Below the pieces are notes generated by a model. That model had not been told where the DNA came from and did no database searches. It saw nothing but the letters and a program-made list of their open reading frames with translations. A stretch of DNA of 64,000 bases from an uncultured Pseudomonadota bacterium (GTDB lineage Bacteria > Pseudomonadota > Alphaproteobacteria > JACZXZ01), in contig CAVVLJ010000020.1 in assembly GCA_963749075.1 (NCBI GenBank), positions 672,001 through 736,000 of the forward strand, read 5' to 3'. The position numbers were made by a program, and so were the translations under genes. Numbering within the stretch: the stretch's first letter is position 1; each line of letters starts with the position of its first letter. Shown here piece after piece: positions 14,771 through 25,321 of this stretch.

Positions 14771-17484
14771 ATGCGAGTCGCAACACCAGTGCACGCCGAA
14801 GTCCCGGAGCAGCGTCCCAGGCGAATGGCGATATTGCCCGGGCGGTGGTACCGCCTGAGGACGGCCATGGTCGCCATGGCGCTCTGCTGGTGGGTGGAGC
14901 GCGTGCGGCGTCTGGCCTGGCCGGTCGTCATCGGCTCCGTTTTGCTTGCGCTTGCGGGCGGCGTCTACACCGCCAGCCATCTCCGCATGAACACCGACAT
15001 CGACGCCCTGTTGTCCCCCGATCTGCCCTACCGCAAGATATTCAAGGCCTTCGAGGAGGATTTCCCGCAGATGCGCGGGAATCTCGTGGTCGTCGTCGAG
15101 AGCGACGGCGCCGAGCGCGCGGAGAGCGCGGCCAAGGCGCTCGCCGCCAAGTTCGCGGCCGACCACGCGCTCTTCGAGGACGTCTTCTATCCGATGGGCG
15201 ACCCCTTCTTCCACCGCGAGGGTCTGCTTTACCTCAAGTCCGACGAGCTGCAGCAGTTCGCCGACCGCATCGTCCAGGCCAAGCCGCTGCTCGTCACCTT
15301 CGCCTTGGACCGCAGCCTGCGCGGCTTCTTCGGCGCGCTCGGCGACGTGGCCGAGGGCGTCAAGCTCGGCAAGCTCGATCCGGCGCTGCTCGCGCACCCG
15401 CTCGGCGCGATCGCCCAGACGGTGGAGGGGCAGATCGACGGCAAGTCGGATCCCTTGAGCTGGCGCGATCTCGTGGCCGCGTCGCCCGGCAAAGCCTCGG
15501 ATCGGCGCCAGATCATTCAGCTCAAGCTCCACATCGACCCGCAGTCCTTGTCGCCGGCCGTGACCGCGATCAAGGCCGTGCGCGCCACAGCGGCGGAGCT
15601 GGGCCTCGATCCGGCGCACGGCGTGCGCGTGCGCATCACCGGCTCGCCGGCGCTCGACGAGGACGATCTCAAGACCGTGAGGGACGGCGTCGGGCTGGCG
15701 AGCGCGGTCTCGCTCGTGCTCGTCTCGATCATCGTGTTCCTCGGCCTGCGCTCGCCCCGGCTCGTCTTCGCGACCCTCGCAACGCTCGTGCTGAGCCTGG
15801 TGTGGACCGCCGCCTACGCGACGCTCGCGGTCGGCTACCTCAACATGATCTCGGTCGCCTTCGCCGTGCTCTTCATCGGCCTCGCGGTCGATTTCAGCAT
15901 CCAGTTCGGGCTGCGCTACAAGGAGAGCGTCGACCGCGGCTCGCCGACCCAGGCGGCGCTCAGGGAGGCGGCGGGCGGCACCGGCGTCGCCGTGACGCTT
16001 GCCGCGGTGTGCGCCGCGATCGGCTTCTTCGCTTTCGTGCCGACCGACTACATCGGCCTCTCGCAGCTCGGCATCATCGCGGGCGGCGGCATGTTCATCG
16101 GGCTCTTCGCCACCCTCACGCTGCTGCCGGCGATCCTCACGCTCCTGCCGGTGAAGCCGAGCCGGCGCGCGGTCGAGAACAGGAAGGGCTATGCCGCGGC
16201 GAGGCTGCTCGAGCGCCATGCCCGCGCGGCGTGCCTGGGGGCGCTCGCCGTGGGCCTCGTGGCGCTCACATCCTTCCCGTGGGTGCGCTTCGATATCGAT
16301 CCCATCAACCTCAAGAGCCCCGACAGCGAGTCCGTCCAGGTCTTTCGCGACATGACCAAGGATTCGCGCACCTCGCCCTACTCGATCAGCATCGTGACGC
16401 CCAATCTGGGGGCGGCCGATGCGCTGGCCAAGCGGCTCGACAAGCTGCCCGAGGTCGCCGGAACCGTAACCCTCAGCTCCTTCCTGCCCTCGGACGAGGA
16501 GGCCAAGCTGCCCGTCATCCGGCGCATGGCGGCTTCCGTGCTGCCCATCCTGCAGGCACCCGAGCGCCGCAGTCCGCCGAGCGGCGAGCGCCGCCGCGAC
16601 GCGACGGAGGAGGCGGGCACCATGCTCACCGGCTTGGCGAACCTGCCCAACGCCGGCGCCGCCGCGGCACCGGCGCGGCACTTGGCCGAGGTTCTCGCCC
16701 GCTTCAACGAGGGCCCGGGCAGAATCTCGATAGCTATGGCGGCCTCGAGAAGGCGCTCGTCGCGAGCCTGTCGGGCGAGCTCGACGGCATGGCCGGCCTG
16801 CTGCAGCCGGCGGCCGTGACGGCGGCGGAGCTGCCGGCCAACATCCGGGCGCGCTACGTGGCGGACTCCGGCCGCGCGCGCATCCAGGTGTTCCCCGCGG
16901 AGACGCTCAACAACGAGCGCGCGCTCAGCCGCTTCGTCACGGCGGTGCGCGCCGTGGCGCCCGATGCCACCGATTCGCCGGTCGAGCTCTACGAGGGCGG
17001 CCGGATGGTGGTCGGCGCCTTCGTCGAGGCGGGCGTGATCGCGCTCGTCGCCATCAGCCTGGTCCTCGTCCTCGTGCTGCGCAGCCTGCTCGATTCGCTC
17101 CTCGTGCTGCTGCCCTTGACGCTGGCCGCGGTGCTCACGGTGGCGGTCGTCGTGGTGACGGGGCATTCCTTCAATTTCGCGAATATCATAGCGCTTCCGC
17201 TGCTCTTCAGCTTAGGCGTCGCCTTCGGCATCTATTTCGTGATGCGCCACCGCGAGACCCCGGGACTGGTGGACCTCATGCACACCAGCACGCCCAGGGC
17301 CATTCTGTTCTCGGCGCTGACCACGATGGTGGCGTTCTCGAGCCTCATGCTGTCGAGCCACCGCGGCACGGCGAGCATGGGCTTTCTCCTCGGCGTCTGC
17401 TTGACCCTCGCACTCGTCTGCACGCTCACCGTTCTTCCAGCACTCCTCACCTGGCGCGCGCAGCGCCGCGGGGCGCGGCGCTAG
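14771..17484 (+). CDS. hpnN: Hopanoid RND/MMPL transporter HpnN, copy 1 (one base missing near 16720)
   Basis: FFHREGLLYL, LNMISVAFAVLFIGLAVDFSIQF, NFANIIALPLL, SSHRGTASMG; two frames join near 16720; colinear with copy 2. Confidence 0.88.
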
Positions 17485-18608: not shown

Positions 18609-19143
18609 TCTTCTTCCAATGCTCCTTGTATTCGCTAAGCAACTTGATGAATTCGTTCAGGCGTTTCCGCTCATCTCGGCTTAGCTTCGATAAGTCGTCC
18701 GAGCTGGCAGCAAACCGGACCGCCGCCTTCTCAAGATTTTGGTCACGCTCGGCAGCTGCTGGTGAGAGAACGAGAAGTGCCCGTGGCGGCAATTTGAAAT
18801 GAACGGCGAGCTGGTAAATCGTCCGCGGTCTCGGGACGATACTGCCGTCTTGCTCGAGCGCGCGTAGTTCTCCTTCGGGTACGCGGACGACCGCAGCAAG
18901 TTGCGCGATATTCAGATTGTCTCGCCGACGCAACTGCCGAAGCAAAATGCCGAGCAGCACTGCCGGCTGCGCGCTGCTAGCTGGCGCTTTCGCTCTAGGG
19001 CTAGGCGGGGTGCGCGGGGTCTTTTCGGAAACAAAGGCCTGTAGGACTTCAGCCTTTGTGATAGGTAGACCGGCGTCGGTATCCAGGTCGGCGTCACGCT
19101 CGATCCGGCTCCGCAGCCATTTGTTTGTGATTCTCATGATCAT
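18598..19143 (-). CDS. XRE-family HTH regulator with N-terminal extension
   Basis: LG.LLRQLRRRDNLNIAQLA...ELRALEQ..P....YQLA..F; paired with the peptidase. Confidence 0.8.
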   Translation of the reverse strand: MIMRITNKWLRSRIERDADLDTDAGLPITKAEVLQAFVSEKTPRTPPSPRAKAPASSAQPAVLLGILLRQLRRRDNLNIAQLAAVVRVPEGELRALEQDGSIVPRPRTIYQLAVHFKLPPRALLVLSPAAAERDQNLEKAAVRFAASSDDLSKLSRDERKRLNEFIKLLSEYKEHWKKNAD

Positions 19144-19153
19144 GTCGTGTTCC

Positions 19154-19787
19154 TCAGCTTTCCGGCGTTTCCAGAAAGGTCGCGGCCTGGTTTGACGAAA
19201 GCTCGAAGTAGCATAATCCATAGCATTGCTGGTCGGAGCCGAAGTCGGTCAACTCCATAACGTCGCGGTAGAATCCCTCCGCGTTCGGCAGGGCATGGAG
19301 ACCGATGCGGCCCTCCAAGCCCTCGTCGAGGCTGAGGTTTACGGCCGCGGCGAAGAGTAGCTGACCTACGCCCTTGTATTTCGGATCGGTAACGAACCGT
19401 GGTCGATTCCAAGGCGCCGTTGCCAGCCGGTCTATGTAGACGCAGGTCCGCGCGCGGGTGGTCAGAGTGACGACTGAATTTTCCACCTTTGCGGACCAGC
19501 ATGAGCCCTTGCGTAAGATCAGCGCACTCGACGCTGTACATCTGAAACAGGAGCGGATTCCGGTAGATTTCGGCCAACCGCCGCCAATCCCAGTGCGCAT
19601 CTTCAGCATTCGCTGCCACGCGCTCAACGGCCGAGGCATTGGCTGGCAATCTGGCTGCGAAAGCGGGTTGCCAGTCACGCTCAAAATCGAGGAGATTCTT
19701 TGCGTCGATCCCATCGAAGAGCATGGCCTCCTCGTACCGCCGGGTTTGACGGTTTAGCAGGTCAAAGGCGCCAAGCCGCGTCTTCAT
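19154..19787 (-). CDS. GNAT-fold acetyltransferase, probable toxin (+1 frameshift near 19445)
   Basis: VYIDRLATAPWNR, KYKGVGQLL acetyl-CoA-binding motif, LHALPNAEGFY; N- and C-terminal halves in adjacent frames. Confidence 0.75.
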
Positions 19788-19996
19788 AGGACCATCAGCT
19801 CAGCTTTTTCTTTGCTCTTGGGGTCCTCGATGAAAACCTTGTCGCCACGCTCTAAACGCTCGTCAACCGACTGATAGAGACGCAACGCCTGACGCAGCAA
19901 CACGGTCTTCGATAGACCCTTGCGAATGCAGAGGGCCTCCAGTGCGTTCATCTCGGCATCGCTCAGATTGAGCGTCATGGTCCGCTTTTCGGTCAC
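19784..19996 (-). CDS. Ribbon-helix-helix (CopG-like) protein, probable antitoxin/repressor
   Basis: MTLNLS.AEM.ALE.L....GLSKT.LLRQAL; GGAGGAG RBS before GTG; ATGA overlap with the GNAT gene. Confidence 0.8.
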   Translation of the reverse strand: MTEKRTMTLNLSDAEMNALEALCIRKGLSKTVLLRQALRLYQSVDERLERGDKVFIEDPKSKEKAELMVL

Positions 19997-20021
19997 GGGG
20001 CTTCTCCTCCAGGCCAACGAT

Positions 20022-20095
20022 ATATAGGCGTCGGCATGGATTTTGTCAACATAATTTAGCCGTTGACTAGCTAAAAAATAGCTGTATTTTAGCTA
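20022..20095. promoter_or_regulatory. Divergent promoter region with two inverted repeats
   Basis: Minus strand GTTGAC-N17-CTATAT (20050-20022); plus strand TTGACT-N16-TATTTT (20063-20090); IRs GTCAAC-N11-GTTGAC and TAGCTAAAA-N10-TTTTAGCTA. Confidence 0.65.
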
Positions 20096-20161: not shown

Positions 20162-20947
20162 ATGGAACCGCAGAATCAACCAAACCCAGAGCAAGTTGAT
20201 ACGGACGTACAGAAAGCGGCGGCGGACGTGAAGCAGGCCGTAGCGGAACTCGAGCGAGCCGAGCACGATCTGGAGCGGGCGGAATCCGAACTCCAGGAAG
20301 CCGAGGCGCATCATCACGCAATTCACTTCACCGTCGACGGCGAACCTTGCGAGACGGAGAAACGCGAGATGACGCCGAACGAGATCATTCGAGAGTTCGG
20401 CAACGGTCAAGACGCAACAACCCACTATCTCATTCAGCTCAAAGGGCACGAGAAGATCAGTTACCAGGGCAAAGGCAACGAGCCGGTCAAGCTGCACGAC
20501 GGCATGCAGTTCCAGATCGTCTCGCTAGGGCCGACGCCGGTCTCGGACGGCCCGATTGTGCGGGGGGTTCCGGCCTTCGTCGAGGGCTTGCGCGGACTCG
20601 GCTACGCGTCCGTCGCACTGCCGGGCAAGCCGGACCATGTTGTGATCGACTACTCGGTGCCGGTCGGCCGTTTCGCCGGCCAGCAGATGCGCCTGGGATT
20701 CATCGTGCCGCCCGACTTCCCCGAGATCCCCCCGAGCGGCCCACACGTCTCGCCGCACATCCACCCGATCAAGACCGATGGTGGCCACCCGAACGGTGCG
20801 GTGCACCGATCGCACTCAGAGCCCTTTGAGCGCGGGCTAGGGGGCCTTTGGCAGTATTGGTCGCGCCCTTTGAAGGACTGGGTGAAGGGCAAGAAGACCG
20901 TCGCCGCCTACATGAGCCACATCTGGCGCTTGTGGGCCACGCAATGA
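20162..20947 (+). CDS. Coiled-coil + ubiquitin-like (beta-grasp) + prokaryotic E2-like fusion
   Basis: Heptad segment aa ~12-49; IHFTVDG..MTPNEII..YLIQ..VKLHDGMQF Ubl pattern ending GPTPVSDG; E2-like IDYSVP.G..VPPDFPEIPP..WQYWSR with no Cys. Confidence 0.78.
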   Translation: MEPQNQPNPEQVDTDVQKAAADVKQAVAELERAEHDLERAESELQEAEAHHHAIHFTVDGEPCETEKREMTPNEIIREFGNGQDATTHYLIQLKGHEKISYQGKGNEPVKLHDGMQFQIVSLGPTPVSDGPIVRGVPAFVEGLRGLGYASVALPGKPDHVVIDYSVPVGRFAGQQMRLGFIVPPDFPEIPPSGPHVSPHIHPIKTDGGHPNGAVHRSHSEPFERGLGGLWQYWSRPLKDWVKGKKTVAAYMSHIWRLWATQ

Positions 20948-22366
20948 GCCGCGCAGCCCACTCGGCGGCGATGACAGAGAAGGTGGACCGCGCAGCCCGT
21001 GGCCAACTCTTGCGCATCGACCGCCAGGAAGATTTGTGCTTCGCGCTGTGGCACCCGAGCCGCGGTCGTAGCCGGACGACCGCGCTCATTGAGCGCCTCA
21101 TCCTGCCTGAAGAGGGGGACCGCCGGATTCACGGCAACGCGAGCTTCGAGCCGGCATTTTTCGAGCGCGCGCTCGGCACCGCCACGGCCCAAGGCGCCGG
21201 CTTGGCGCTTCTACACAGCCATCCGTACGGGCGCGGTTGGCAGGGCATGAGCAAGGACAACGTCGTCGCTGAGCAGGGCCATGCCGGGGCTACCTACGGC
21301 GCGACCGGCTCGCCTCTGGTAGGCTTGACGCTCGCTGGCGATGGCACGTGGAGCGCGCGGTTCTGGGATCGCACTGCACCGCGGACATATCCTGGTGCTT
21401 GGTGTGCCACGGTGCGGGTAATCGGCCAACGCCTCGTCACGATGTATAACCCCGCGCTCGCTCCGCCACCGCGACCGACCGACGAGCAGATCCGGACTAC
21501 CTCGGCCTGGGGCGAAAGCAGCCAAGAGGATCTGGTGCGCCTGCGCGTCGGTGTCGTCGGCGCCGGCAGCGTTGGTGGCATTGTTGCCGAGACTTCTCGC
21601 GCGAACCGGCTTCGAGGATGTGATGCTCATCGATTTCGATCATGTCGAGCGCCATAACCTCGACCGCCTGGTCTATGCGACGCGCGCCGACATCGGCGAG
21701 CTCAAGGTGGAGGTGTTGGCGGAGCATCTGCGCACTCGCGCGACCGCCGCGGCTTTCCGAGTCGAGCCAGTAACCGCCGCCGTGTACGAGGAGGAAGGCT
21801 TCCGGGCGGCTCTTGACTGTAACGTCCTCTTTTCCTGCGTCGACCGTCCGTGGGGCCGGTATGTGTTGAACCTCATCGCCTACGCCCACTTGATCCCGGT
21901 GATCGACGGTGGCATCGCCATCCGAACCAACCGGCTGGGCAAGCTGGCTGCGGCCGATTGGCGCGCGCACACCGCCATGGTTGAACGGTGCTGTCTGCAG
22001 TGCCTCGGTCAATACGACCCCAGCTTAGTACAGATGGAGCGCGAGGGACATCTCGACGATCCGCATTACATCGCCAGTTTGCCGAAAGACCTCCCGCTCA
22101 AGGCCCGCGAGAACGTCTTCGCCTTTGCCTTGTCCACCGGTAGCTTCCAGATGCTGCAACTGCTCGCCCTCGCGCTGGCGCCGCTTGATCAGTCGAACCC
22201 AGGCGCCCAGCGCTATCATTTTGTGGGCCATTTTATGGAGCCACCGGCTTTCAGTGCCTGCCGTCCGGGATGCTTGTTTCCCTCGCTCGCCGGGCACGGC
22301 GATTCGAGCGGATTGGCGGTCACGGGTGCACGGCCGATCAGGCCAAAGAATGACGCCAGCCCGTGA
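20944..22366 (+). CDS. JAB peptidase + E1/ThiF adenylase fusion (+1 frameshift near 21594)
   Basis: QEDL and LLHSHP...MS JAB motif; VGAGSVGG, IDFD.VE..NLDRL, SCVD, CLQC...CRPGC ThiF motifs; ATGA overlap with the upstream gene. Confidence 0.82.
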
Positions 22367-22367
22367 T

Positions 22368-22460
22368 GTGAGCGATCCAAGGGTCTACGTCGGCTACGTA
22401 TTCCTCTACTCCTACGGCCTTGAGCGCAGAGTGTTGCTGGACGGCGCCGGTGACGCGCAA
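22368..22460 (+). pseudogene. Fragment resembling a TerB N-terminal domain
   Basis: DPRVYVGYVFLYSYGLERRVLLD resembles the GYVFLYFYGLERR motif of TerB-N proteins; no full gene around it. Confidence 0.55.
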
Positions 22461-22505
22461 AATGCGCCAGGCACCCTCCGCCGGCCGCGGCTGGCTAATA
22501 TTGGG

Positions 22506-22609: not shown

Positions 22610-25321
22610 ATGAGCCCTATACCCGTGCAGGCCGAGGTCCCGGAGGAACATCCGAGCGGCAGTGAGGCCGTGCCCGAGCACCGCCGCCGCCCGTTCGGAC
22701 CGCGCATCGCCTGGGCCCTCGGCTGGTGGGTCGAGCGGGTGCGGCGCTTTGCTTGGCCCGTGGTCGTCGCAGCGCTCTTGGCCACGCTCGCGGGCGGCGT
22801 CTACACCGTGCGGAATCTCCGCATGAATTCCGACAGCGACGCGCTCCTGTCCTCGGCGTTGCCCTATCGCCAGACGCTCAAGGCCTTCAGGACGGCATTT
22901 CCAGAGCTCCGGGGCAATCTCGTCGTCATCGTCGACGGCGACAGTCCCGACCGCGCCGAGGACGCGGCGAACGCGCTCGCCGCCAGGCTCGGCGCCGCGA
23001 GCGCGCTCTTCGAGGACGTCTATTTCCCTACCGGCGAGCCGTTCTTCCGCCGCGAGGGCCTGCTGTTCCTCGATAAGAAGGAGCTCCAGGATCTCTCGGA
23101 CCGCCTGGCGCAGGCCCAGCCGCTCCTCGGCGCGCTCGTCGAGGACCGCAGCCTGCGCGGCCTCTTCGGCGTGCTCCGCGAGGCCACGCTCGGCATCGAG
23201 CACGGCGAGGTCGCCCCCACCCTCCTGGTGCGCCCGCTCGAGGCGATCGGGGACACGGTCCAGGCCGGGCTCGAGGGCAGGCCGGCGCGCTTGAGCTGGC
23301 GCGACCTCATGACGGGTCTCCCCGACCGGCCGGCCGACCGGCGCCAGTTCATCCTCGTCAAGCCGCGGCTCGACCACGGCTCGCTCGCCCCCGCCGAGCG
23401 CGCGATCAAGGCCGTGCACGCCCTCGCGGCGGCGCTCGATCTCGATGCGCGGCACGGCGTGCGCGTGCGCGTGACGGGCGGCCCGGCGCTCGACGAGGAC
23501 GATTTGCGCAGCGCGCGGAACGGCGTCGGGCTCGCCAGCATGATCTCGCTCGTGCTCGTCTCCATCATCGTCTGCATCGGCCTGCGCTCGCCCAAGCTGA
23601 TCTTCGCGACGCTCGCGACGCTGATCCTGAGCCTGATATGGACCGCGGCCTTCGCCACGCTAGCCATCGGCTATCTCAACATGATCTCGATCGCCTTCGC
23701 CGTGCTCTTCATCGGCCTCGCGGTCGATTTCAGCATCCAGTTCGGGCTGCGCTACAAGGAGAGCGTGGATCACGGCGCCGGTCTCGCGGCAGCACTCGAG
23801 CGCGCGGCGCGGGGCACCGGCGTCGCGGTCGGCCTGGCCGCACTCTGCGCCGCGGTCGGCTTCTTCGCCTTCGTGCCGACCGACTATACGGGCCTCTCCC
23901 AGCTCGGCATCATCGCCGGCGGCGGCATGTTCATCGGGCTCTTCGCGACGCTGACGCTGCTGCCGGCGCTGCTGGCGCTCATGCCCATCAAGCCGAGCGC
24001 CCGGCCGATCGAGGAGAGGAACCGGCTCGTCGTGGCGGCGTTTCTCGACCGCCACGCGCGGGCGGTGTGCCTCGCGGCACTTGCCATCGGCCTCGTCTCG
24101 CTCGCGGCCGTTCCCTTCGCGCGCTTCGACTTCGATCCCATCAATCTCAAGAACCCGAACACCGAGTCGGTGCAGGCCTATTTGGAATTGACCAAGGACG
24201 CCGGCACCTCGCCCTATTCGCTCAACGTCGTGGCGCCGAACCTCGCGGATGCCGATGCGCTGGCCAAACGGCTCGACCGGCTGCCCGAGGTGGACAGCAC
24301 GGTGACGCTGAGCTCCTTCATTCCGCAGGGCGCCGCGGCAAAGCTGGGGCTCATCGATCAGATGGCGACCTTCCTGACGCCCGTGCTGCAGGAGCCCGAG
24401 CCGAAGCCGCCGCCGAGCGACGCCGAGCGGCGCGCCGCCTCGGAGGCGCTGCGCCAGGCCCTCGTCGAGCTCGCCGTCTCGCCCAAGGCGGGCGCCGTCG
24501 CCGCCTCCGCAAGGCGCCTGGCCGAGCTGCTCGCGCGCTTCAACGACGGCCCCGGCAGGGATCTCGCCGCCTATAGCCGGCTCGAGACCGCCCTCGTCGG
24601 CAACCTGCCGGGCCGTCTCGACAGCCTCATCGACCTCATGCAGGCGGGACCCGTCACCTACGGCACGCTGCCGTACAATCTGCGGGAGCGCTACGTCACC
24701 CCCGACGGCCGCGCGCGCGTCGAGATCTTCCCGGCTCAGAATCTCACCAACGAGGTCGCCTTGCGCCGCTTCGTCGAGTCCGTGCGCACCGTGGCGCCCG
24801 ATGCCACCGGGGCACCCGTCGAGCTCCTCGAAGGCGGCAAGCTCGTCATCGGCGCCTTCGAGCAGGCGGGCGCCATAGCGCTCGTCGCCATCAGCCTGCT
24901 CCTCGTCCTCGTGCTGCGCAGCGTTTGGGACTCCCTCCTCGTGCTCTTGCCGCTGGCGCTCGCGGCGGCGCTCACGGTGGCCCTCGTCGTGGTGACCGGG
25001 CAGGCCTTCAATTTCGCCAATATCATCGCACTGCCGCTCCTCTTCAGCCTCGGCGTCGCCTTCGGCATCTACTTCGTGCTGCGCCACCGCGAGACCCGCG
25101 GGGTCGCCCAGCTCATGCGCACCAGCACGCCGCGCGCGGTGCTCTTCTCGGCGCTCACCACCATGGTCTCGTTCTCGAGCCTCATGGTGTCGAGCCACCG
25201 CGGGATGGCGAGCATGGGCTATCTCCTCGGCATCTGCCTGTCGCTGGCGCTGATCTGCACCCTCGTCGTGCTGCCCGCACTCCTCACCTGGCGCGAGCAG
25301 CATCGCGGGGAGACGCCATGA
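22610..25321 (+). CDS. hpnN: Hopanoid RND/MMPL transporter HpnN, copy 2
   Basis: Intact 903 aa ORF with the same motifs as copy 1; ATGA overlap with hpnA. Confidence 0.92.
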   Translation: MSPIPVQAEVPEEHPSGSEAVPEHRRRPFGPRIAWALGWWVERVRRFAWPVVVAALLATLAGGVYTVRNLRMNSDSDALLSSALPYRQTLKAFRTAFPELRGNLVVIVDGDSPDRAEDAANALAARLGAASALFEDVYFPTGEPFFRREGLLFLDKKELQDLSDRLAQAQPLLGALVEDRSLRGLFGVLREATLGIEHGEVAPTLLVRPLEAIGDTVQAGLEGRPARLSWRDLMTGLPDRPADRRQFILVKPRLDHGSLAPAERAIKAVHALAAALDLDARHGVRVRVTGGPALDEDDLRSARNGVGLASMISLVLVSIIVCIGLRSPKLIFATLATLILSLIWTAAFATLAIGYLNMISIAFAVLFIGLAVDFSIQFGLRYKESVDHGAGLAAALERAARGTGVAVGLAALCAAVGFFAFVPTDYTGLSQLGIIAGGGMFIGLFATLTLLPALLALMPIKPSARPIEERNRLVVAAFLDRHARAVCLAALAIGLVSLAAVPFARFDFDPINLKNPNTESVQAYLELTKDAGTSPYSLNVVAPNLADADALAKRLDRLPEVDSTVTLSSFIPQGAAAKLGLIDQMATFLTPVLQEPEPKPPPSDAERRAASEALRQALVELAVSPKAGAVAASARRLAELLARFNDGPGRDLAAYSRLETALVGNLPGRLDSLIDLMQAGPVTYGTLPYNLRERYVTPDGRARVEIFPAQNLTNEVALRRFVESVRTVAPDATGAPVELLEGGKLVIGAFEQAGAIALVAISLLLVLVLRSVWDSLLVLLPLALAAALTVALVVVTGQAFNFANIIALPLLFSLGVAFGIYFVLRHRETRGVAQLMRTSTPRAVLFSALTTMVSFSSLMVSSHRGMASMGYLLGICLSLALICTLVVLPALLTWREQHRGETP

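Follow-up and report, generated by a model that had tools for sequence, protein, structure and literature searches.

A probable cysteine-free Bub-type ubiquitin-like conjugation cassette of a BubE-less branch in an uncultured alphaproteobacterium

We analysed a 64,000-nucleotide stretch of contig CAVVLJ010000020.1 (hereafter the window), from an uncultured alphaproteobacterium of the JACZXZ01 lineage. Within it, two adjacent genes encode a ubiquitin-like protein (Ubl) fused to an E2-like domain (open reading frame 1, ORF1) and a JAB peptidase fused to an E1 (ORF2). The stop codon of ORF1 and the start codon of ORF2 share the sequence ATGA, and an ATGA or GTGA overlap also occurs in most of 38 related loci found by scanning species-representative genomes. 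An earlier note on this DNA had described two coupled genes holding Ubl, E2, JAB and E1 parts, and this description is borne out by the overlap, by an AlphaFold2 model of ORF1, by a profile match to BubCD and by a ThiF match. The pair is not a chance arrangement, since at least 288 proteins are related to ORF1 (E ≤ 0.001 among the candidates scored) and an intact JAB-E1 of 458–504 residues directly follows the Ubl-E2 gene in 36 of the 38 loci, the frames of the other two (L022 and L024) being shortened. We conclude that the pair is very probably a cysteine-free Bub-type Ubl conjugation cassette, with the layout of a Type I Bub system, that belongs to a diverged branch without BubE. The features of the locus are collected in Table 1.

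Type I Bub systems, formerly called 6E.1 or DUF6527 operons, comprise BubAB (Ubl-E2), BubCD (JAB-E1) and BubE (DUF6527) (bioRxiv 10.1101/2024.11.21.623953, Ye, Gong, Chambers, Corbett), and the system studied is that of Citrobacter sp. RHBSTW-00271 (bioRxiv 10.1101/2024.11.21.623953). There, the conserved G229 is the residue after which BubCD cleaves BubAB, the E1 lacks a catalytic cysteine and has an invariant crossover tyrosine (Y370), and the E2 has an invariant serine (S333) with an invariant histidine (H335) and aspartate (D299); conjugation is abolished by Y370F and by S333A/H335A (bioRxiv 10.1101/2024.11.21.623953). BubE is a Ser-His protease that strips conjugates and, according to the authors, is present in all Bub operons (bioRxiv 10.1101/2024.11.21.623953). 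A Ubl-E2 (BubAB) with a JAB-E1 (BubCD) is thus a published architecture. The mechanism proposed in the earlier note (coupled domains, an E2 serine, a crossover tyrosine and a JAB cut) is supported by homology to Citrobacter, but the novelty it implied is not, because BubAB and BubCD define Type I Bub and the note had re-derived them. What is new is a widespread Type-I-like branch that lacks BubE and has a differently built E2 active site. In lacking BubE, the pathway is indeed 'minimal', as the note had called it, although in a respect that it did not state.

Table 1. Positions of the cassette, its key residues and neighbouring features (window coordinates unless residues or another locus are given)
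Feature	Position	Strand	Description
bubAB-like gene (ORF1)	20162-20947	+	261 aa; helix, one beta-grasp Ubl and E2/UBC-like domain
ORF1 long N-terminal helix	residues 9-49		AlphaFold2 model
ORF1 beta-grasp Ubl	about residues 53-123		residues 54-121 in AlphaFold2 model
ORF1 linker	residues 125-129		pLDDT <50, floppy in AlphaFold2 model
ORF1 E2/UBC-like domain	residues 124-261		alpha/beta fold at 135-260 in AlphaFold2 model
Gly123 codon	20528-20530	+	predicted Ubl C-terminus after JAB cut, between FQIVSLG and PTPVS
Ser234 codon	20861-20863	+	predicted E2 nucleophile in WQYWSRP
bubCD-like gene (ORF2)	20944-22366	+	ATG start at 20944; JAB-E1 fusion read in two frames
ORF2 first frame	20944-21591	+	JAB/JAMM peptidase, then E1 start (GAGSVGG)
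JAMM Glu29	21028-21030	+	present
JAMM His91-x-His93	21214-21222	+	present
Asn106 (AAC)	21259-21261	+	JAMM zinc-ligand Asp in the family (Citrobacter D104)
Frameshift site	21592-21595	+	ACTT where homologues have one codon; 1-base insertion
ORF2 second frame	21596-22366	+	E1 adenylation domain incl. NLDR, CVDRP, CxxC, Tyr375, CxxxC
NLDR	21656-21667	+	
CxxC	21992-22003	+	
Tyr375 (DDPHY, crossover loop)	22067-22069	+	nearly invariant in family
CxxxC	22259-22273	+	
TerB_N fragment	22350-22460	+	overlaps E1 stop; Pfam E 2.7e-7, profile positions 76-108 of 207
Promoter-like TTGACT-16-TATTTT	20063-20090	+	consensus scan: 1 site vs 0.4 expected; in 144-nt gap before ORF1
28-nt palindrome	20068-20095		14-nt arms, 86% complementary, no gap; TAGCTAAAAAATAG / CTGTATTTTAGCTA; overlaps promoter-like site
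Ribbon-helix-helix (RHH) gene	19784-20017	-	RHH_1, E 1e-5
GNAT-like gene, two frames, after RHH	RHH + GNAT span 19140-20017	-	split near 19440; Acetyltransf_10 E 0.049 only
Helix-turn-helix (HTH) protein, 207 aa	18598-19221	-	HTH_31, E 5.5e-8
HExxH protein, 311 aa	17673-18608	-	motifs HEITH, EAEANY only
Caspase-helicase fusion	L007:8202-11294		
Caspase-helicase fusion	L012:8231-11323		
Caspase-helicase fusion	L014:8210-9832		
Caspase-helicase fusion	L038:8190-11228		

The AlphaFold2 model of ORF1, built on 26 relatives, has a mean predicted local distance difference test (pLDDT) score of 86.9. Both the beta-grasp and the E2 fold that the earlier note expected of a structure prediction are present in it, and both have Bub proteins among their fold matches. 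When the model was compared with 48,161 Protein Data Bank (PDB) representatives using VIA-align, the Ubl (residues 51–123) was closest to Bub multi-ubiquitin proteins (9d5b, Z 11.0, 1.4 Å over 68 residues; 9cd2, Z 10.5; 9d59, Z 9.3), with ThiS as a weaker match (Z 7.1). The best match to the E2 domain (residues 135–261) was Citrobacter BubB (9eav_D, Z 8.9), with a root mean square deviation of 3.9 Å over 114 residues, and a weaker one was the ubiquitin E2 variant (UEV) domain of Tsg101 (Z 7.0). The window family was also aligned, using hhalign, with nine canonical BubAB/BubB proteins, chosen as Prok-E2_E proteins encoded in genomes of the class to which the window belongs, giving a probability of 91.4 and an E-value of 9e-7. 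The sole invariant block among these nine proteins, WSRH close to the C-terminus, corresponds to the S-x-H described in the Bub paper.

Several results weigh against placing ORF1 with the Bub proteins. Ordinary E2s tie with BubB as fold matches (yeast Ubc8, Z 8.8; UBE2E1, Z 7.8), and a Foldseek search of the model against the PDB returned nothing within E ≤ 0.001, although Bub multi-ubiquitin proteins headed the list of weaker matches. The Pfam family Prok-E2_E (PF14462) scores 21.8 bits on ORF1 (E 1.7e-4), below its 25-bit gathering cut-off, and Multi_ubiq scores 15.4 bits on residues 50–125, where the cut-off is 24.5. Among other results on ORF1, the PF14462 label is precomputed on 10 of the 120 relatives listed, and searching the ORF1 family profile against PDB sequences gave nothing meaningful (E 0.56 and 0.94). 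Matches of ORF1 to the PADLOC models PbeC and JetC (E > 0.002) were dismissed as coiled-coil noise.

The predicted C-terminus of the Ubl and the predicted E2 nucleophile are both conserved. Gly123 shows no variation among the 26 relatives, and hhalign pairs it with the junction glycine of canonical BubAB, which suggests that it is the counterpart of the Citrobacter cleavage site G229. Ser234 is likewise invariant in all 26, and because hhalign places WQYWSRP on the WQRWSRH of canonical BubAB/BubB, it is the counterpart of the tested BubB nucleophile S333. As the earlier note had pointed out, the E2 part (residues 124–261) contains no cysteine, and no E2 cysteine is conserved among the relatives. 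The surroundings of the serine differ from those in Citrobacter, however. The position of the canonical helper histidine (H335) is occupied by Pro236, which is nearly invariant, and that of the helper aspartate (D299, within PDMFY) by Ser192, where the family has serine, glycine, alanine or threonine. With both helpers absent, the reactivity of Ser234 is not assured, and this too counts against a Bub-type E2. His209 and Pro210 are instead invariant in 26 of 26 relatives, forming an HP(x)G motif upstream of Ser234. Since the helpers are missing and this motif is present, the E2 active site must differ in its build from those of the studied Bub E2s.

The absence of the histidine and aspartate that accompany the serine in studied Type I Bub E2s would also fit a domain that is no longer catalytic. 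The E2-like domain could then be a UEV-like adaptor, with the E1 alone passing on adenylated or tyrosine-linked Ubl, or with only Ubl-E2 self-conjugates being formed. The fold match to the Tsg101 UEV points the same way, as does the main in vitro product of the Citrobacter system, which is BubA on a lysine of BubB (bioRxiv 10.1101/2024.11.21.623953). We nevertheless regard an adaptor as very unlikely: Ser234 and the WxxWSR motif around it show no variation in the 26 relatives, the motif is common to E2s that need the serine for conjugation, and the invariant His209-Pro210 is what would be expected of a maintained active site.

The nearest solved relative of the JAB-E1 protein is Citrobacter BubCD. 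A 24-row family profile matches BubCD (9ea4) with an E-value of 6.9e-33, aligning profile positions 9–426 with BubCD residues 10–418 of 458 and so including the JAB domain, and the E1 piece of the window by itself also has BubCD as its best solved relative (E 1.3e-14). The next solved relatives of the profile are TcdA, UBA5 and MoeB, at about 1e-14 to 1e-12. The E1 piece matches the PADLOC models for E1-E2 (Cap2) with an E-value of 1.3e-8 and that for BilD with 3.8e-4, whereas the JAB piece alone has no PDB sequence match at E ≤ 1 and no PADLOC match. ThiF (PF00899) passes its 28.1-bit cut-off, with 73 bits on the second frame and 105.7 bits on the intact homologue L004. Prok-JAB reaches 14.5 bits, on a homologue only, where the cut-off is 25, which is a further point against the assignment. 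Of the Pfam families named in the earlier note, ThiF is therefore supported, but Prok-E2_E, Multi_ubiq and Prok-JAB stay below their cut-offs, leaving the pair short of the threshold for three of its four domains, a difference from Type I Bub.

The E1 glycine motif (GAGSVGG), the NLDR, the cysteine motifs and the crossover tyrosine (DDPHY) in a loop without cysteine had all been located correctly in the earlier note. In the crossover stretch the only cysteines are those of the CxxC; the 24-row alignment has no conserved cysteine in the loop, and the tyrosine of DDPxY is nearly invariant. Two observations in this region tell against the Bub-type assignment. HMMER pairs the family tyrosine with Citrobacter Y362 (in the numbering of the paper, to which the PDB numbering of BubCD adds 2), eight residues before the tested Y370. 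We take the alignment of the loop to be unreliable, and so the equivalence of Tyr375 and Y370 is based on Tyr375 being the sole nearly invariant tyrosine in the loop. In addition, the window has a leucine (22091–22093) at a crossover position (KDHPL) that is almost always histidine in the JAB-E1 family, and a contig from run X2 covering 22010–22160 confirms this leucine.

The branch E1 carries a zinc-type site, CxxC...CxxxC, and Citrobacter BubCD has no cysteine at the first CxxC. A Cys4 zinc site is typical of MoeB/ThiF-like enzymes, the best names offered by NCBIfam, ThiF and MoeB, all score far under the cut-offs, and ThiS is found among the fold matches of the Ubl. Taken together, these could indicate that the genes serve a ThiS/ThiF-like or MoaD/MoeB-like pathway, for carrying sulfur or making a cofactor, rather than protein tagging. 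We consider this highly improbable, since the E1 and Ubl are fused to a JAB peptidase and an E2, respectively, the genes sit on a low-GC islet with regulator and toxin-antitoxin-like genes, and none of the 38 loci has a thiamine or molybdopterin gene next to the cassette. BubCD is moreover by far the nearest solved relative (E 7e-33, compared with 6e-12 for MoeB).

As assembled, the JAB-E1 gene of the window carries a frameshift and an asparagine at a zinc-ligand position, and both weigh against a working cassette. Aligning the two frames with 10 intact homologues places the frameshift between ...GGIVAE and LARTGFEDV..., and because the four bases of the site replace a single homologue codon, the position given in the earlier note, 21594, is exact. 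The cassette could accordingly be read as a decaying, non-functional remnant, in which the JAB-E1 is truly frameshifted, the zinc-ligand aspartate is lost, the third gene is truncated and no conjugation takes place here. Such decay would account for two independent lesions in one gene and for the TerB_N gene remnant after the E1; shortened JAB-E1 frames are also present in L022 and L024, and a cassette that is possibly toxic could be counter-selected.

Contigs from a public soil-metagenome run (X1) argue otherwise. Of the words sampled from 20900–22400, 73% occur in these contigs, which leave about 21346–21441 and 21979–22096 uncovered and show exactly two differences from the window in this interval, both on the two defects. 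The first is A to G at 21259 (depth 5.55), which turns Asn106 into aspartate, and the second is one base fewer at 21594 (depth 3), which restores the frame. Because these contigs carry the intact frame and the aspartate, the breaks are likely to be assembly errors or a strain variant, and the apparent pseudogene in the window genome is probably an artefact of the same kind or such a variant. Two more frameshifts within 5 kb, one in an hpnN paralogue near 16711–16723 and one in the GNAT-like gene near 19440, fit an indel-prone assembly, and ORF1 is intact with all of its invariant residues kept. Set against this, the intact alleles are supported by single contigs at the two depths given, possibly from the window's own sample. 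On balance, we judge it unlikely that this strain truly carries the lesions, and we would give the remnant reading little credit.

The preferred reading, a Bub-type cassette of a branch without BubE, draws on the related loci. The 38 loci are mostly from soil or peat Acidobacteriota and Alphaproteobacteria, and include Bradyrhizobium and Rhizobium isolates. DUF6527 was found in none of 90 downstream ORFs (at least 70 residues, within 1.8 kb, 38 loci) and in none of 58 upstream ORFs from 30 loci, the remaining eight loci having short flanks or being near-duplicates. Nor was it found in the window's own genome, which is 96% complete. Of five other cassette genomes, three have no DUF6527 and two have it only on another contig. 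As a control, DUF6527 was located 1.4–1.9 kb downstream on the same strand at eight of nine canonical Prok-E2_E places; the ninth, in genome G164, adjoins transposase-like ORFs. In a quick maximum-likelihood tree of the JAB-E1 proteins, from which L022 and L024 were left out, seven canonical proteins are set apart from 37 of the branch (99 in the Shimodaira–Hasegawa-like approximate likelihood ratio test), the two groups being separated by a long branch in a tree with long branches.

The same genome, G164, contains a locus of another composition (L052, G164:C3:2211795-2215100). Here, a 127-residue E2-only protein with the WQYWSRP motif precedes a 512-residue JAB-E1, which the quick tree places within the BubE-less branch. 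There is no obvious ORF for a Ubl next to the pair, and G164 carries canonical Prok-E2_E and DUF6527 genes elsewhere.

The published Bub catalogue was drawn, according to a companion paper, from operons containing DUF6527, and because it was seeded in this way it would miss the branch by construction. Searching Table S1 of the preprint for the isolate species B. frederickii, B. australiense and R. sophoriradicis gave no entry for any of them, and all 18 rows inspected have a DUF6527 entry. We found no published description of a BubE-less branch in the literature, the journal version of the Bub paper being outside that scope.

The cassette can be compared with each of the known bacterial systems. 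It shares with Type I Bub the gene order (Ubl-E2 fusion, then JAB-E1 fusion), a conserved glycine at the end of the Ubl, the JAMM motif (its aspartate reading as asparagine in the window as assembled), an E1 crossover with a conserved tyrosine in place of cysteine, and a cysteine-free E2 with its serine in W-S-R. Its branch differs in having no BubE/DUF6527, and its E2 in having Pro236 and Ser192 for the histidine and aspartate and in its invariant HP(x)G. The cassette also has one beta-grasp after a long helix, compared with three beta-grasps in Citrobacter; the companion paper mentions a small number of Ubls that combine a single beta-grasp with an N-terminal coiled coil. Type II Bub (6E.2; BubA, BubBD and BubE) resembles the cassette in its oxyester chemistry, with a crossover tyrosine, an E2 serine and no catalytic cysteine, but has an E2-E1 fusion, no JAB, a lysine and a histidine beside the serine, and a BubE (bioRxiv 10.1101/2024.11.21.623953), where the cassette has Ubl-E2 and JAB-E1 fusions. 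Bil (BilABCD) and the Cap2/Cap3 proteins of cyclic oligonucleotide-based antiphage signalling systems (CBASS) are similar in being bacterial E1/E2/JAB machinery on defence islands. They use catalytic cysteines and thioesters, and their proteins are separate or differently fused (bioRxiv 10.1101/2024.11.21.623953), whereas the cassette has no conserved catalytic cysteine.

A mechanism modelled on the Citrobacter experiments can be proposed. The pair would be transcribed from the promoter-like site upstream of ORF1, which a candidate operator covers, and translated as a coupled pair through the ATGA overlap. The JAB domain would cut the precursor after Gly123, releasing a helix-Ubl (residues 1–123) and an E2 (residues 124–261). 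The E1 domain, which has the motifs for it, would adenylate Gly123, and the Ubl would be taken by Tyr375 of the crossover loop as an oxyester, then move to the E2, where it would form a second oxyester with Ser234, as for S333 of BubB, and finally be placed on target lysines. Because no BubE is present, removal of the tag would either be absent or be done by the JAB domain. A bolder, tentative extension, which we think possible but somewhat doubtful, is that the pair represents a third, self-contained Bub type of two genes, without BubE, with an E2 serine that works with an HP-type motif and an E1 that bears zinc. Maturation and removal of the Ubl would then both fall to the JAB domain, and in some genomes tagging might switch downstream effectors (a caspase-helicase, deaminase, Fic protein or helicase) on or off rather than act on phage proteins.

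Bub systems are the only known Ubl pathways that run wholly on oxyesters. A widespread branch that has neither BubE nor the published E2 helpers therefore offers a natural way of testing which parts of the chemistry the pathway needs, and a smaller, two-gene system for reconstitution.

The genomic context also resembles that of Type I Bub, with an islet-like setting and, in relatives, HTH and M78 (CapH/CapP-like) neighbours. Peptidase_M78 adjoins the cassette in 22 of the 30 related loci examined, 20 of which have an HTH partner, and these neighbours match the association with CapH and CapP reported for Bub, where the two occur together at 31% of operons (bioRxiv 10.1101/2024.11.21.623953). 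In the window, an HTH/HExxH gene pair lies 940 nt from bubAB, behind the RHH and GNAT-like genes, which form a toxin-antitoxin-like pair between it and bubAB. The HTH and 311-residue HExxH proteins are a possible CapH/CapP-like regulator pair. Neither has significant BLASTP similarity to the regulator pair of the related locus L008, and NCBIfam gave no usable names; the 311-residue protein has no Pfam match and no significant similarity to the M78 neighbour in L008. The palindrome over the promoter-like site is a candidate operator, and is likely to be where a repressor of either the cassette or the divergent RHH gene would bind.

The cassette is found on a 5-kb stretch of low GC content (0.55–0.67, compared with 0.69–0.72 in the flanks), and a search of 40 related genomes did not recover the DNA of this islet. 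The biological role of the cassette would probably be a response induced by stress or phage, with the islet gained by horizontal transfer. A point against such a role is that no Bub operon has so far been found to protect E. coli from phage (bioRxiv 10.1101/2024.11.21.623953), which PMC13373217 restates.

The low-GC stretch sits between two old hpnN-like paralogues. The first, an hpnN-like RND transporter gene at 14786–17454, is split between frames near 16711–16723, and the second (22610–25321) is intact, with a conserved upstream element that begins at 22493. We had considered whether these genes were a fresh duplication marking the ends of the islet, which was ruled out by their age as paralogues, with 77% DNA identity. 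Between the cassette and the second paralogue, the internal TerB_N fragment appears to be what is left of a third gene that has been lost.

Downstream genes vary among the related loci, and convergent genes end most of them. In 4 of the 38 loci, a fusion of about 1030 residues, joining a caspase-like Peptidase_C14 domain to DEAD/Helicase_C domains, begins 3–99 nt past the JAB-E1 stop; the tagging system may have it as an effector or as a target. Single related loci have a deaminase, a Fic protein or a helicase downstream.

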